The translations under genes were made by a program, and so were the position numbers. The notes beneath the pieces were generated by a model. It searched no databases. It was not told where the DNA came from and worked only from the letters and a program-made list of their open reading frames with translations. Positions 22,296 through 44,459 of a stretch of 64,000 nucleotides of DNA are shown in pieces (position 1 is the first letter of the stretch; every line of letters begins with the position of its first letter). The DNA is taken from contig OY969934.1 of NCBI GenBank assembly GCA_963704725.1, forward strand, positions 544,001 through 608,000, read 5' to 3'. Source of the stretch: an uncultured Actinomycetes bacterium. GTDB lineage: Bacteria > Actinomycetota > UBA4738 > HRBIN12.

Positions 22296-24484
22296 ATGAC
22301 CTCCTTCCTCTACCGGCTCGGCCGCGGGGCGGCCCGGCGCCGCTGGCTCACCATCGGGATCTGGGTGGCCGTGGTCGTCGCCATCTTCGGCGCCGGCTCG
22401 GCGCTCGGCGGCAAGCTCACCGACGACTTCAACATCCCCGACGCCGAGTCGCAGCGCGCGTACGACGTGCTCGCCGACCGCTTCCCCTCCGCCTCCGGCA
22501 CGTCGGCGGACATCGTGTTCCACGCCCGGGGCCGGGGGGTCCTGACCGACGACGCGAACGCGGCCGTCGTCGCCGATACCGTCGCCGCGCTCGCCGACCT
22601 CCCGCACGTGCTCCAGGTCACGAACCCGCTCGAGACGCCGGGGACGCTGTCCCAGAGCGAGGAGATCGGGTTCGCACAGGTCGCGTACGACCTGCCCGCC
22701 GATCAGCTCGGCACCGAGGCGTTCACACAGCTCGAGGACGCCGTCGAGGAGGTTCGGACCCCGCAGGTCCAGATCGAGATCGGGGGCGAGTTCGCCTCGT
22801 TCGGCGATCAGCCGGACACCGGGAGCTCCGAGGCGGTCGGCCTGCTCGCCGCGATGGTGATCCTGCTCGTCGCGTTCGGCTCGCTGGTGGCGATGGCCCT
22901 GCCCGTCGGGACGGCGGTGATCGGCCTGGCCACCGGCCTGGGACTCACGATCGTGGTGGCCTCGTTCGTGAACGTGCCCGTGTTCTCCACGACGCTCTCG
23001 ACGATGATCGGGCTCGGCGTGGGGATCGACTACGCCCTGTTCCTGGTCACGCGGTACCGGCAGAACCTGCAGGCCGGGATGGAGCCGCTGCACGCGATCG
23101 GCGTCGCGAACGCCACCTCCGGCCAGGCGGTCCTGTTCGCCGGCGCCACGGTGGTCCTGGCCATCCTCGGCCTGTGGATCTCGGGCATCGCGTTCGTGGG
23201 GATGATGGCCACGGCGACGGCGATCGTGGTGGCGGTGGCGGTGGCCGCGGCGATCACGCTCCTGCCGGCGCTGCTGGGGTTCGCGGGTCGGGCCATCGAC
23301 AAGCTGAGCGTGCACCGGATCCTCCGGCGGGCGGACGCCTCGTCCGAGCGCGAGAACATCTGGGCCCGGTGGGGGCGCCAGGTCGAGCGCCGTCCGTGGC
23401 GGTACTTCACCGCGGCCCTGCTCGTGCTCCTCGATCCTCGCGATCCCGTTCTTCTCGATGAAGCTGGGGATGCCCGACGACGGGACGGCGCCGACGTCGG
23501 AGTCGCGACGCCGCGCCTACGACCTGCTGGCCGAGGGGTTCGGCCCCGGGTTCAACGGGCCGCTGCTGCTCTCGGTGGAGATCCAGGACCCGGCCGCGCT
23601 CGGGCAGGCTCGACGGCCTCGTCGCGGCGCTCGGCGAGGCCGACGGCATCGCGGCGGTCTCGCCCGCGCAGCCCAACCAGCGCGGCGACGCCGCGGTCAT
23701 CCAGGTGATCCCGGCGACGTCGCCGCAGAACGACGCGACGACCACGCTCGTCCACCGGCTGCGCGACGAGGTCATCCCGCAGGCCACGCCGGACGGCGCG
23801 ATCGTGTACGTCGGCGGGCTCACCGCGACGTTCATCGACCTCTCCGAGCGCGTGACGAACGCCCTGCCCTGGTTCATCGGCGCCGTCGTCCTCCTGTCGT
23901 TCCTGCTCCTCATGGTCGTGTTCCGTTCGGTCCTGGTGCCGCTGAAGGCCGCGGTGATGAACCTGCTCTCGATCGGGGCCTCGTACGGCGTGATCGTGGC
24001 GATCTTCCAGTGGGGGTGGGGGCGGAGCCTGCTCGGCATCGAGAACCCGGTCCCCATCGTGAGCTTCGTCCCGATGATGATGTTCGCGGTGCTGTTCGGC
24101 CTGTCGATGGACTACGAGGTCTTCCTGCTCTCGCGGATCCGGGAGGAGTACCTGAAGACCCGGAACAACGTCGAGAGCGTGGTCACCGGTATCTCGACGA
24201 CGGCCCGAGTCATCACGAGCGCCGCGGTCATCATGATCGCGGTGTTCCTGAGCTTCGTGGCGCTGCCCGATCCCATCGCCAAGATGTTCGGTATCGGGCT
24301 GGCCACCGCCGTGCTCATCGACGCCACGGTCGTCCGGGTCGTCCTGGTCCCGGCGACGATGGTGCTGATCGGCGACGCCAACTGGTGGCTGCCCCGCTGG
24401 CTCGACCGCATCCTGCCGAAGATGCACCTCGAGGTGGACGTGGAGGAGCCCGAGGCCGCCCTCGAGCCCGTCTCCGTGCCGTAG
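22296..24484 (+). CDS. MMPL-family (RND-like) transporter, frameshifts near 23433 and 23608
   Basis: GLGVGIDYALFLVTRYR, AYDLLAEGFGPGFNGP, FGLSMDYEVFLLSRIRE and NWWLPRWLDR spread over three frames. Confidence 0.9.
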
Positions 24485-24707
24485 GAGCCCGGGCCGCGAT
24501 CCGAAGACACCCGGAATGGGGTAGATAGCCGGCGCCCGCCGCAAGCCGATGCTCTTGGTAGGCCGGTCGTTCGACCAGGGCCGACCTCCAGCGTCAGGCT
24601 CGGTCCATCCTCGTGATGGCTCGGGTCCTAGGCTTCCCGGGTGCTCGAGCCTGGCGCCGGGGGCCGGCGTAACCGCGCCGGAGCCCTCTGCTAGAGTCCC
24701 GCCCCTC

Positions 24708-25086
24708 GTGGACTGGCGGCTCGAGCTCGTGCAGGTCCCCGTGTCGGACGTCGACCGGGCCAAGGCGTTCTACGTCGACCAGGTCGGCTTCCACGCGGAC
24801 CACGACCACCGAGTGAGACGACGAGATCCGCTTCGTCCAGCTCACGCCGCCCGGATCGGCGTGCTCGATCTCCCTGGCCAGCGGACCGCTCACCGCCGGG
24901 ATGGCTCCGGGCTCGGTGCAGGGGCTACAGGTCGTGGTGGCGGACATCGAGGCCGCCCGCGCCAAGCTCGTCGAGCGCGGCGTCGAGGTCAGCGAGGTCC
25001 AGCACTTCGACTGGGGCTCGTTCGTGTTCTTCAGCGACCCCGACGGCAACGGCTGGGCCGTGCAGGCCATCCCCGGCCGCAGCTAG
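24708..25086 (+). CDS. VOC/glyoxalase family protein, frameshift near 24818
   Basis: MDWRLELVQVPVSDVDRAKAFY, then IRFVQLTPPGSACSI and FSDPDGNGWAVQ in the +1 frame. Confidence 0.85.
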
Positions 25087-25127
25087 TCTGCGCCAGCCCC
25101 TGCCGCGCTCCCCGCGCCGACGCGACC

Positions 25128-25580
25128 CTAAGGCCCGCCTGCCGACAGCGCCTCCAGGATGCGAGCTCCATTCGCTTGAAGCGACGCAAGTGACTTCTCG
25201 ACGTAGCTGAAGACCGCTCCTTCGTACTCAGACGTTGCCTCGTCTCGCGGCAGGAGGATTGGGTCAAGAGCAGCCACCTCCTCCCCGGTTCCCGTTTCAA
25301 TCGTGAACCGCATGATGTCCCGATCGGTTGCATCAGCGAAGAACGGCCTGCCCCCTGCTGCCAATCGAACGGCATCGTTGGGTGCAACCACGAGAAGGAC
25401 AATGACATCCTCGAACTCCTGCGACTCACTTCGAGTGAACGTAGCGATCATTCGATATGTCTCGTTGCCTGGTGCGTCAGCACCAGCCCCACCAAGGATG
25501 TGAGGATCTTGCGCCCGAACTGTCGCCACTAGCTCGTCAAATGCTGGCTTCAGTCGATCAGTAACCTCCTGCCAATGCAC
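25128..25580 (-). CDS. Hypothetical protein with atypical (lower-GC) codon usage
   Basis: GGAGGAGG RBS before GTG 25580. Globular-looking 150-aa sequence with many A/T-ending codons. Confidence 0.6.
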   Translation of the reverse strand: MHWQEVTDRLKPAFDELVATVRAQDPHILGGAGADAPGNETYRMIATFTRSESQEFEDVIVLLVVAPNDAVRLAAGGRPFFADATDRDIMRFTIETGTGEEVAALDPILLPRDEATSEYEGAVFSYVEKSLASLQANGARILEALSAGGP

Positions 25581-25871
25581 GGGTCCTCCTCCTCCGACGT
25601 GCACTGCTCCTCCGCCACCCGGGCATACATGACTCTGACTGGCTCCCTGGTTAGCAGGTTGGGGCTCGCCAAGGTGGGTCAGTCCCCGGGCGGCAGATCC
25701 TAGGGGATTGTCCTCATGCCGAGCAGCACCGACCGCGTCCACCGGGGTTTCTCGCTGAGGTCGTGCGCCAGCGAGGGAGTCCGGCAGGAGGCCCCCGGCA
25801 CTGTCCAGGGAGCTTGGGGCGTCTCGCCCGGCGTCGTTGCCATACCGCGGGACTTGCCGCACCATGGACGG

Positions 25872-26073
25872 CACGAGAGGAAGGAGGTGGTCCAACTGCA
25901 TAGACAGATGGAGACCCTCGAGGTGACTGGCTGCTGAGCCATCCCTCGCGGGCCGGGGCCACCGCCCCGCCCGTTTGCCGGGAGACCGGCAGAATCCAAC
26001 CAGCTCACCGACCTCACGCGCTCCGGTTGGTCTACCGGACGAAGCCTCGACGCAGGCCGAAGCGCACGTGAGG
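25872..26073 (+). ncRNA. Candidate structured RNA with extended Shine-Dalgarno and 13-aa micro-ORF (25896-25937)
   Basis: TTGCCA-17-CACCAT promoter-like at 25837-25865; AAGGAGGTGGTCCA at 25881; long-range pair GGTGACTGG/CCAGCTCACC; GAGA-loop hairpin 25976-25991; three-way junction 26012-26073. Confidence 0.55.
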
Positions 26074-26229
26074 ACCGAGTCACCGAACCGGGCCGGGCCC
26101 CGCGCGGGTCCGGCCCGTTCGCGTTCGCCGACCGAGGCGCCCGGCCGCCGCCGAACGGTCCGATTGGTCTCCCGATCCTGCCCGACCGGCTCGTAGGCTC
26201 GGGGCGGGGGCCGACCAGGGAGGGTGGGG

Positions 26230-27600
26230 ATGACCGCGAAGGCGAAGGAGGGAAGCGCCGCGCGTCCCGCGCGGGGCGGATCGCAGGACCTGTTCTACGC
26301 GTCGGGGGCCACGGCGGAGCTCCCGCGCATCGTCCGCGGTGAGGGCGTCTACCTCTGGGACGACGTCGGCAACCGGTACCTGGACGTGGCCTCGGGCGCG
26401 TTCCTGTCGAACCTCGGCCAGGGCAACGAGCGCGTCCTGCGAGCGATGCACGAGCAGGGCCGGCGGTTCACCTACTCGTACGTGCGCAACACGCGGCACG
26501 ACGCCAACGTCGAGCTCAGCGAACGCCTGGTCCGGCTCGCCGGTCCGGGCTTCGATCGCGTGTTCCTGTGCTCGAGCGGGTCCGATGCGATCGAGGCGGC
26601 CGTGCAGATCCTGCGCCAGCACGCGATCGCGATCGGGCAGCCGCAGCGCCATCGCGTGATCACGTTGATGCCGAGCTACCACGGGGGCACGCTCGCCACG
26701 ATCGGGCTGGGCGGGGATCGCGCCACCCCCGCGGTGTACGAGCCGATGGCGGTGTTCTCCGAGAAGGTGCCGGCGCCGCTCACGTGCCGGGCCGAGAGCC
26801 CGGAGGCGGCGGCCGTAGCCAGCGCTCGGGCGCTCGAGGAGACGATCCGGCGGGTGGGGCCGGAGTCCGTGCTCGCGTTCGTGATCGAGCCGGTCGGGGG
26901 CCAGTCGAGCGGGGCCAACGTGCCCGATCCCGTGTTCTTCGCCGAGGTGCGTCGCATCTGCACCGAGCACGGGATCCACCTGGTGTTCGACGAGATCGTC
27001 TCGGCCTTCCGGACGGGGCGGTTCCTCGCCGCCCACCACCACCCCTCCGCGCTGCCGGACGTCGTCGTGCTGGCCAAGGGGCTCGGAGCGGGCTACGCGC
27101 CGCTCGGCGCCGTGCTCGCCCCGGCCCGGCTCGTGGACCGGCTCGCCGAGACCACCGGCTTCCACGTCACCCGGTCCTCCGACGCCAACCCGATCGCCTG
27201 CGCCGCGGGGAGCGCGGTCCTGGACGAGGTCGTCGAACGCGGGCTCCTCGAGCGCGCCGGGGTGATCGGCGACCGGCTCCGGACCGGGTTGGAGCGCCTG
27301 GCCGCCCGCTCGCCGCTGGTGGGCGAGGTCCGAGGCCGGGGCATGCTCCTCGCGATCGAGCTGGTCCGCGACACGTCATCGATGGAGCGGTTCGATCCCG
27401 ACGTCGACCCGGCCGACCGGGTCCGCCATCACGGCGCTCGCCACGGGCTCCTCGTCTACTCGCGCCGCCAGAACGCCGGCACGTTCGGTGACTGGATCCT
27501 CGTGACCCCGCCGCTGGTGATCACCGAGGACGAGTGCGACGAGCTGCTCCTCGGCCTGGAGCGTGCCGTCGACGACGCCGCGGCCGACCTGCTGACCTGA
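26230..27600 (+). CDS. PLP-dependent aminotransferase class III
   Basis: GEGVYLWD..GNRYLD, SGSDAIEAA, SYHGGT, FVIEPVGG, FDEIVSAFRTG, LAKGLGAGY, RGRGMLLAIE. Confidence 0.92.
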   Translation: MTAKAKEGSAARPARGGSQDLFYASGATAELPRIVRGEGVYLWDDVGNRYLDVASGAFLSNLGQGNERVLRAMHEQGRRFTYSYVRNTRHDANVELSERLVRLAGPGFDRVFLCSSGSDAIEAAVQILRQHAIAIGQPQRHRVITLMPSYHGGTLATIGLGGDRATPAVYEPMAVFSEKVPAPLTCRAESPEAAAVASARALEETIRRVGPESVLAFVIEPVGGQSSGANVPDPVFFAEVRRICTEHGIHLVFDEIVSAFRTGRFLAAHHHPSALPDVVVLAKGLGAGYAPLGAVLAPARLVDRLAETTGFHVTRSSDANPIACAAGSAVLDEVVERGLLERAGVIGDRLRTGLERLAARSPLVGEVRGRGMLLAIELVRDTSSMERFDPDVDPADRVRHHGARHGLLVYSRRQNAGTFGDWILVTPPLVITEDECDELLLGLERAVDDAAADLLT

Positions 27601-44367: not shown

Positions 44368-44459
44368 CGGAGGCGGACGGGAATCGAACCCGCCTGGGAG
44401 CTCTCGCCCCCACACCGGTTTTGAAGACCGGGGGGCCCACCAGGCGCCCTGACGCCTCC
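44368..44459 (-). tRNA. selC: tRNA-Sec (anticodon UCA)
   Basis: GGAGGCG acceptor pairing with CGCCTCC-G, anticodon arm CCGGT-CTTCAAA-ACCGG, long variable arm, GGTTCGATTCC T-loop. CCA not encoded. Confidence 0.93.

Follow-up and report, generated by a model that had tools for sequence, protein, structure and literature searches.

A 64,000-nt stretch from an uncultured Actinomycetes bacterium (GenBank assembly GCA_963704725.1, contig OY969934.1, forward-strand positions 544,001–608,000), which at its full length is called the window here, carries a putative RNA gene on its forward strand at 25873–26128, followed by a class III aminotransferase gene at 26224–27600. By comparison with its homologues, the RNA is a diverged orthologue of Ms_IGR-5 (Rfam RF02471). 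It joins three elements within a short space, namely 17 nt complementary to the 16S rRNA 3′ tail, a conserved micro open reading frame (ORF) of 13 codons and a covarying core fold that shares its bases with that frame. The features of the locus are as follows, in window coordinates.

25837–25865, + strand: putative promoter, with −35 box TTGCCA at 25837–25842, a 17-nt spacer and −10 box CACCAT at 25860–25865 (conservation).
25873–26128, + strand: the RNA, a diverged RF02471 orthologue, beginning with an invariant 5′ A and ending with the terminator hairpin and its tail (31.6 bits with the Rfam model, 151.2 bits with our own model R1, fold z = −4.4).
25874–25877, + strand: 5′ strand CGAG of helix P1′, at the RNA 5′ end (covariation).
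25878–25894, + strand: 16S-tail complement AGGAAGGAGGTGGTCCA, 17 nt, an extended Shine-Dalgarno (SD) sequence in a single-stranded landing pad.
25896–25937, + strand: micro-ORF with CTG start, 13 codons and TGA stop, encoding (L/M)HRQMETLEVTGC in a conserved frame.
25912–25916, + strand: 5′ strand AGACC of the pseudoknot, in ORF codons 6–7, pairing with GGTCT in the P4 loop.
25917–25920, + strand: 3′ strand CTCG of helix P1′, made of ORF codon 8 and the first base of codon 9 (covariation).
25922–25930, + strand: 5′ strand GGTGACTGG of helix H1, in ORF codons 9–12, with a second SD-like GAGGTG 9 nt before the stop (covariation).
25928–25941, + strand: local hairpin P2, TGGCT (25928–25932) with AGCCA (25937–25941), whose loop and 3′ strand include the stop codon and which overlaps the last H1 pairs.
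25948–25990, + strand: two lineage-variable hairpins, 25948–25973 and the GNRA-loop hairpin 25977–25990 (fold).
25991–25999, + strand: unpaired joiner AGAATCCAA, in which GAAUCC is nearly invariant across the phylum (conservation).
26000–26009, + strand: 3′ strand CCAGCTCACC of helix H1, resembling the 16S tail (UCACC) (covariation).
26012–26073, + strand: three-way junction closed by CCTCACG (26012–26018) and CGTGAGG (26067–26073), holding hairpin P4 (26022–26039) and a second hairpin (covariation).
26029–26033, + strand: 3′ strand GGTCT of the pseudoknot, in the P4 loop (covariation).
26085–26128, + strand: putative intrinsic terminator, a G+C-rich hairpin followed by GTTCGCGTTCG, with a weak U-tract (fold, conservation).

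The original prediction for this locus could assign no named Rfam family. Infernal run against Rfam with E-value reporting overturns this, aligning 25873–26065 to RF02471 over its full length (model positions 1–184 of 184) at 31.6 bits and E = 4.5e-05 in a 1.4-kb search. The score lies below the gathering cut-off of 45 bits, which is an operational threshold and not a biological feature. A scan of the whole window at gathering thresholds gives the selenocysteine tRNA as the sole match and does not call RF02471. Rfam labels the family 'Actinobacteria sRNA' (small RNA), and the first report of it was in M. smegmatis (Rfam RF02471). Its consensus starts ACACAaGGAAGGAgGugGuCc. The blocks common to it and the window RNA are a 5′ AC..GGAAGGAGGUGGUCC, GAGGUG, AAUCC..CAG.UCACC and a CCGG..GUC..CCGG hairpin with a GUCC loop.

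The Rfam model gives full-length but sub-threshold matches in 11 of 41 related genomes. In a phylum-wide sample of 151 genomes it matches 43, and 19 of these exceed the cut-off. The scores of the 43 run from 185.6 to 25.8 bits as a gapless series. Four of the 43 matched genomes are flagged unpublished (G041, G057, G085 and G154), and 39 of 147 match without them. We therefore read the window RNA as a diverged Ms_IGR-5 orthologue that the curated cut-off excludes, because the match is full-length and continuous intermediates lead to the above-cut-off members. It resembles them in being collinear with the whole model, in the conserved blocks, in the intermediates and in being a stand-alone gene; it differs in its sub-threshold score and in middle hairpins that are lineage-specific.

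Our own model R1 was built from 41 sequences across the whole score range, with loci from unpublished genomes excluded. The window RNA scores 151.2 bits with R1 and is the sole copy in its genome, while the above-cut-off Rfam members L015–L022 score 77–111 bits. With R1, the RNA is present in 25 of the 41 relatives (22 of 38 without the unpublished G011, G029 and G037) and in 73 of the 151 phylum genomes (67 of 145 without six unpublished ones), as a single copy in 72 of the 73. Some families hold it in 10/10, 10/10, 9/10 and 9/10 genomes, and in others the R1 search found it in 0/10, 0/9 and 0/7. Two copies occur only in G009 (contigs C37 and C10) and G060 (contigs C126 and C17); G009 is listed with 9% contamination, and its second copy may be from another strain.

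Of the actinobacterial genomes sampled, about half have the RNA, among them large ones of 7.5–9.2 Mb and ones that score 165–186 bits with a model founded on the M. smegmatis RNA. The Rfam model with its cut-off misses whole lineages (43 versus 73 of the same 151 genomes), so annotation pipelines leave the gene uncalled in genomes like that of the source. As to a mobile-element origin, blastn gave no match among 50,697 phage and 72,556 plasmid records. A partial 20.1-bit match of the Rfam model elsewhere in the same genome (L001) was judged to be chance. So were the other sub-threshold Rfam matches of the 1.4-kb search, namely CRISPR-DR29, HCV_SL669, TTC28-AS1_3, ASpks and sX2, with E-values of 0.37–6.7 and scores far under their cut-offs.

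The 16S rRNA of the source genome ends ...CTGGATCACCTCCTTTCT, also written ...GCGGCTGGATCACCTCCTTTCT. The original prediction saw a 14-nt complement to this tail, AAGGAGGTGGTCCA at 25881–25894. The complement is in fact longer, and 25878–25894 pairs with the last 17 nt of 16S with two G·U pairs and a duplex energy of −30.3 kcal/mol (RNAduplex). For the count of 17 we take the mature tail to end ...UUUCU; the duplex would be 15 nt if the mature rRNA ends with the Rfam model of the small-subunit rRNA, two bases earlier. The genome, 3.45 Mb in size, has 16,713 GGAGG sites when both strands are counted, and at least 17 contiguous pairs form at only three of them; of these, one is antisense to the rRNA gene and another contains five G·U pairs. 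The complement goes beyond chance and is the longest site of its kind in the genome.

The tail is identical in all six genomes checked, from four families. Frame and pairing statistics below refer to the 41-sequence set, with 20 further homologues kept as an out-of-sample set, and structure counts refer to all 61. Contiguous pairing of 16–18 nt is kept in 40/41 homologues, the exception having a single mismatch in the SD core, and in 20/20 of the more divergent out-of-sample ones. Ten positions face a C, A or G of 16S, and they do not change in any of the 41 homologues save for one C to U substitution, which keeps its pairing with G. At the six positions that face a U, nearly all variation is A/G exchange, with 243 of 246 cells purine and three pyrimidine. 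All six variable columns among the 12 purine columns are those opposed by U, which by our arithmetic has one chance in 924 if random. Since the variation is confined almost wholly to A/G exchange opposite 16S U, the pairing to the 16S tail is under selection by this comparison.

Another extended SD of the genome, GAAGGAGGTGGTCC at G000:C1:364759 on the minus strand, is the second-best site with few wobble pairs and lies 1 nt before an ATG. The frame there starts MIKEVQCECGFYARG and is open for at least 41 codons. Such an extended SD can therefore adjoin the start codon of an open frame. The alternative that the SD extension GGUCC is conserved because it forms a helix with GGAC in the ORF ('Pi', included in model R1) was rejected, since this helix does not covary: own pairs average 4.80 bp versus 4.77 bp after shuffling, 734 of 2000 shuffles reach the observed value and two of the three GAUCC variants mismatch.

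In 41/41 homologues, the frame with GAG GTG runs open from a start-like codon to a stop, which always comes exactly five codons past GAG. The stops are of all three kinds (TAG 19, TGA 18, TAA 4), and TGG never takes their place. The length is 12–14 codons in the 41-sequence set, 12–15 with the further homologues included and 10 in one family. An NTG start 7–12 nt after GGAGG occurs in the ORF frame in 40/41, versus 1/41 and 0/41 in the other frames. In-frame stops, conversely, occur in 0/41 in the ORF frame versus 31/41 and 38/41 in the others. The start/open-frame/stop rule is obeyed by 18/20 of the out-of-sample homologues. The remaining two, L063 and L064 (G054 and G164, of one family), are the most divergent and weakest matches and lack the usual stop in that frame. 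As we read their sequences, they carry a 10-codon ORF in another frame, with ATT or TTG start and ...SGGGSS before the same TAG, and their pseudoknot complement is not detectable (2–3 bp).

The starts are mostly weak (UUG or CUG). The first start-like codons are TTG 18, CTG 13, ATG 4, GTG 3, ATT 2 (each then followed by TTG) and ATA 1. A rough count over 153 long ORFs led by GGAGG in the source genome gives ATG 90, GTG 51, CTG 6 and TTG 6. TTG and CTG together thus make up 31/41 of the homologues versus 12/153 of these ORFs.

The encoded residues behave differently from the frame. Residues 2–6 vary freely, and T-x-E-V recurs in most homologues. Its x codon covaries with the RNA 5′ end and encodes L, P, R, C, E, H or V, its Thr codon is a pseudoknot strand that a frame-shifted reading turns into Gly-Pro in L038, L039, L069 and L070, and its GAG GTG shows no synonymous change in any homologue. 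The apparent conservation of the peptide arises because the conserved codons coincide with covarying helices. The micro-ORF is, by this comparison, a conserved and translatable frame, and its peptide appears free of detectable selection. In passages of PMC4974804, MS_IGR-5 homologues are reported to carry 'significant ribosomal reads' in both M. abscessus and M. smegmatis. From the conserved frame we infer that the micro-ORF is translated in the source organism as well.

The window RNA folds with z = −4.4, and none of 200 dinucleotide shuffles folds as well. RNAalifold on the phylum-wide alignment joins RNA positions 2–5 with the four bases before AGGUG in helix P1′. Over the 61 sequences (alignment A5, fitted to model R1), P1′ is paired in 99.2% of cells, and three of its four pairs show compensatory changes. 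Its pair types include GC 27, AU 14, CG 14, GU 3 and UA 1, and at another pair AU 27, CG 22, GC 6, UA 3, GU 2 and UG 1. The long-range helix H1 (GGUGACUGG/CCAGCUCACC) is paired in 92.0% of cells, with pair types that include AU 24, GC 24, CG 4, GU 2 and UA 2 at one pair and UA 42, CG 15, AU 2 and GC 1 at another. It forms an 8–9-bp duplex in 41/41, at −9.6 to −18.6 kcal/mol.

The pseudoknot joins the ORF to the P4 loop. Its longest helix averages 5.39 bp versus 4.58 ± 0.09 bp after loop shuffling, none of 2000 shuffles reaches it, and at least 5 bp form in 52/61. Its compensatory forms are CGACC/GGUCG, CGGACC/GGUCCG, UGGACC/GGUCCA, CCGGACG/CGUCCGG, CGUGACC/GGUCACG and UCGGAU/AUCCGG. Hairpin P4 covaries across the phylum and is paired in 97.7% of cells. 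Taken together, the core helices are paired in 95.1% of cells versus 78.2% after shuffling (0/500 reach it) and 33–43% when slid by 1–3 columns. An unfitted MAFFT alignment of the 41 sequences gives 93.3% versus 83.5%. The closing stem and inner hairpins of the junction covary within the clade.

As a result of this layout, 19 consecutive bases at 25912–25930 (ORF codons 6–12) are paired one stretch after another, first with the P4 loop, next with the RNA 5′ end and then with the H1 partner 70 nt downstream, and the last codons with the stop lie inside hairpin P2. The only long unpaired part is the landing pad, which is the first ~40 nt with the SD, the start codon and five freely varying codons. 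The structured core begins with the pseudoknot 16 nt after the start codon, at +17. Alternative pairings are predicted for the ORF region, and the terminator hairpin at 26085–26121 is not among the alternatives.

The core of P1′, H1 and the pseudoknot, as predicted here, is different from the curated Rfam consensus. In the cmscan consensus, the 5′ end and the CAG.CACC block are unpaired and GGUGGU pairs with GCUGCC. We rejected the latter helix, Rfam P1, as it has no covariation (observed equals shuffled) and one of its pairs is unpaired in 21/41.

The local elements of the original prediction all lie where it placed them. The CTG-initiated ORF of 13 amino acids is there and its start, open frame and stop are conserved in the homologues. 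The pairing of the ORF end, GGTGACTGG/CCAGCTCACC, not only exists but covaries. The hairpin TGGCT/AGCCA across the stop codon is found at its place, the GAGA hairpin lies at 25977–25990, and the junction closed by CCTCACG/CGTGAGG covaries in the relatives. The collection of homologues that it had proposed as a check, 61 in number, conserves the SD, the ORF and covarying helices. Its promoter-like TTGCCA-17-CACCAT is also present, with boxes that align in the relatives.

In 13 relatives, a −35 box (mostly TTGCC-like) and a −10 box NANNNT align at a constant distance from the RNA, and phylum-wide homologues have TTGNC/TTGA and TANNNT-type boxes upstream. The terminator hairpin is kept in 12 relatives with compensatory changes in eight of 11 pairs. 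Scans for E. coli-type consensus called neither a promoter nor a terminator at the window locus, and the promoter, the terminator and the start site are placed here by conservation only. The three homologues from the largest genomes (L020–L022) have A-rich tracts ahead of the −35 box. In the window, the DNA directly upstream of the promoter (~25200–25700) has a G+C content of 0.565–0.625 versus ~0.71 for the genome, and the sole long ORF across it, 25128–25901 on the minus strand, has no Pfam match.

A crude GC-position caller gave a downstream ORF at 35 loci. The nearest such ORF is convergent with the RNA in 25 of these and shares its orientation in 10, one of which is the window locus. Flanking genes are common only to close kin, and no neighbour is common across families. 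By Pfam names, Aminotran_3 is a neighbour in the window only, and the other loci have citrate synthase, MttB, LmeA, 2OG oxygenase, PMT, Aminotran_4 or a GCV_T-like protein. Given its one copy in the genome, a conserved promoter and terminator hairpin of its own and the lack of conserved neighbours, we regard the RNA as a stand-alone gene rather than an aminotransferase leader.

Expression of the family is documented in other actinobacteria. In the passages concerned, the family forms an sRNA transcription unit of its own, with its ends mapped, in S. avermitilis (PMC8780764), is marked as RNA-seq-validated in S. lividans (PMC8079986) and is detected as ncMSMEG15794c in cold-shock transcriptomes of M. 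smegmatis (PMC10454040). For the stretch itself, only three metatranscriptomes, from three studies, share a small fraction of words with it (0.04–0.05), and their contigs of at least 85% likeness cover 25879–26064. One of them, a 204-nt X2 contig, begins within the SD block and ends at ~26084. The flanks 25600–25878 and 26096–26312 had no contig cover, which is no sign of a discrete transcript because the contigs come from relatives with differing flanks. We take these contigs as weak support for expression. The X1 and X3 contigs enter adapter-like sequence directly after 26040, the 3′ foot of P4, which may be a fragment or processing end.

We favor, at a probability of about 0.55, the reading that the RNA is a ribosome-engaged and trans-acting one whose core unfolds upon translation of the micro-ORF, so that the act of translation and not the peptide is selected. 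Comparison gives the family, the selection on 16S complementarity, the conserved frame, the three helices and the independence of neighbours; from these we infer the transcript ends, the translation, the switch and the output. The 30S subunit would dock tightly on the 17-nt complement and initiate slowly on a weak codon, CUG here and UUG in most relatives. Docking would melt no helix, since the pseudoknot starts only at +17. A ribosome that translates to the fixed stop would then unzip the pseudoknot, P1′ and H1.

The second SD-like GAGGUG, normally buried in H1, stands 9 nt ahead of the stop and could there retain a ribosome that is terminating. In this way, ribosome engagement would be converted into RNA refolding with an output in trans on some partner. 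The open or closed form might expose the GAAUCC joiner and the 16S-like UCACC, bind a partner or alter the RNA stability. The original prediction had likewise proposed a ribosome-binding RNA with a translation-coupled structure. That part is upheld by the selected 16S pairing, the frame and H1, while its aminotransferase switch is not.

Several points weigh against this reading. The Rfam gathering score is not reached (31.6 versus 45 bits), and the Rfam model misses the window locus in whole-genome searches because its first-look filter scores few candidates. An initiating ribosome may have no room for a duplex that comes within 2–3 nt of the start codon, so the far part of the complement may be for some other state. 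CTG and ATA are both poor initiators, and 13/41 homologues start with the former and one with the latter. The shuffle controls ignore kinship among the sequences. The covariation-supported fold is less stable than the best one by 8.1 kcal/mol (−124.8 versus −132.9), with the pseudoknot uncounted, and RNAalifold at the clade level prefers the SD paired with CCAGCTC; more than one conformer is possible in these predictions. The metatranscriptome contigs are mostly from relatives and cannot show strand, ends or level, and an RNA library may hold DNA. The searchable literature, with supplementary tables outside the scope, gave no functional study, target or phenotype.

Among the rival explanations, the least improbable is that the RNA is a ribosome decoy or sponge, in which the 17-nt duplex with the 16S tail holds 30S or 70S and the short ORF only frees escaping ribosomes fast. 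We consider this unlikely. It would suit the selected −30.3 kcal/mol duplex, the excess of TTG and CTG starts (31/41 versus 12/153), a pseudoknot barrier only 16 nt past the start codon, the A-rich tracts upstream of the −35 box in L020–L022 and the ribosome-protected reads on the mycobacterial family in passages of PMC4974804. But a single gene copy would need to out-titrate thousands of ribosomes, and a frame kept strictly across the pseudoknot, P1′ and H1 as far as a fixed stop exceeds what an escape hatch needs, as the other frames close quickly too. A purely sequestering role is conceivable on these data. Still less likely is a small-protein gene, whose product would be the 13-residue peptide (...T-x-E-V-x-x-x) and whose RNA structure would only tune expression. 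The conserved frame, start and stop, the recurrent T-x-E-V and the very strong ribosome-binding site speak for a protein, whereas the freedom of residues 2–6, the x codon that follows the 5′ end through seven amino acids, the Thr codon that serves as a pseudoknot strand and gives Gly-Pro in four homologues, the family that reads the GGAGGTG block in another frame (...SGGGSS) and the lack of synonymous change in GAG GTG all speak for the RNA.

An untranslated base-pairing sRNA, with the purine-rich 5′ end or the UCACC and CCUC segments as seeds for mRNA targets and an incidental ORF, seems to us about as improbable as the small protein. It agrees with a stand-alone gene that has a terminator, with the conserved unpaired GAAUCC joiner and with the sRNA annotation in Rfam and in passages of transcriptome papers (PMC8079986, PMC8780764), yet it leaves unexplained the frame-specific statistics of start, open frame and stop with all three stops in use, the variation that fits the 16S tail exactly and the ribosome-protected reads in the passages of PMC4974804. 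The remaining explanation, which the original prediction had offered as a translation-coupled switch, is a cis-acting leader or attenuator that couples the micro-ORF to the aminotransferase at 26224–27600. The layout of a tiny ORF with alternative helices is leader-like and the window aminotransferase is co-oriented, starting ~100 nt past the hairpin. Checking the conservation of the downstream gene favors trans over cis: Aminotran_3 follows the RNA in the window alone, the downstream ORF is convergent in 25/35 loci, the neighbours differ among families with none in common, and the conserved terminator hairpin, which has its own covariation, lies outside the alternative pairings. The leader is thus very improbable.

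Returning to the ribosome-engaged reading with a core that unfolds on translation, a more specific form of it is possible, although we hold it only tentatively and as clearly less likely than the general one. Ms_IGR-5 would be a phylum-wide 'ribosome-gated' RNA that converts the momentary capacity of the cell for initiation and elongation into a trans-acting conformational output by a clamp on the entire 16S tail, a weak start and a sacrificial micro-ORF that threads a pseudoknotted core. The weak start codon would plausibly make the initiation sensitive to IF3. If true, the RNA would amount to leader-peptide attenuation freed from a downstream gene, or it would sense or buffer the free ribosomes of cells in growth arrest.

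The base-by-base match to 16S, the micro-ORF and the core of P1′, H1 and the pseudoknot appear to be new, as the searchable papers gave no description of them, with the founding paper (Li et al. 2013) and supplements outside the scope. For years the Rfam entry Ms_IGR-5 has been an sRNA with no assigned function. It now has specific hypotheses that mutants can test, namely that the ribosome is its direct partner, that its micro-ORF is kept for the translating and that its core fold is unlike the curated consensus.

Elsewhere in the window, a selenocysteine tRNA (RF01852) lies at 44369–44459 on the minus strand with 75.1 bits, above its cut-off, and its presence means that the source organism probably makes selenoproteins. 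Two plus-strand ORFs, 22296–23708 and 23705–24484, overlap by 4 nt and both match the MMPL family (profile positions 2–330, then 98–310); they are either a split or frameshifted transporter or two genes. The plus-strand ORFs 24549–25193 and 24901–25086 match the Glyoxalase superfamily in overlapping frames, the N-terminal part in one (weak, below the cut-off) and the C-terminal part in the other, and this locus looks like a frameshifted gene or a sequencing error.

Four known systems bear comparison with the window RNA. The transfer-messenger RNA (tmRNA) takes in ribosomes by an alanyl-tRNA mimic, and has a tRNA-like domain and a tag frame with no start codon. Like it, the window RNA is a pseudoknotted single-copy RNA with a very short frame and a fixed stop, but its entry would be by the SD and a start codon. 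ARAGORN finds no genes in 25700–26250, and the Rfam scans give no tmRNA match. A likeness of GAAUCC..CCA to the 3′ part of tRNA was considered and dropped, being not conserved in other lineages.

The dual-function sRNAs SgrS/SgrT, RNAIII/hld and SR1/SR1P are also stand-alone structured RNAs with a ribosome-binding site and a short ORF. Their peptides are conserved and active, whereas the peptide here appears to be under no detectable selection and its ORF lies inside the structural core, not beside it. The 5′ end of hok-type mRNAs folds back on part of the reading frame farther down and so shapes ribosome access. The window RNA has the same kind of fold-back from its 5′ end to an internal ORF segment, but has no toxin-like hydrophobic peptide or antisense partner and leaves its landing pad open.

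In the leader-peptide attenuators such as trpL and ermCL, the translation of a tiny ORF, not its product, remodels overlapping helices. The tiny ORF of the window RNA likewise overlaps helices that its translation would remodel. It differs in having no conserved co-oriented downstream gene and no regulatory codon run, and as its own terminator looks constitutive, any output of the RNA must act in trans.

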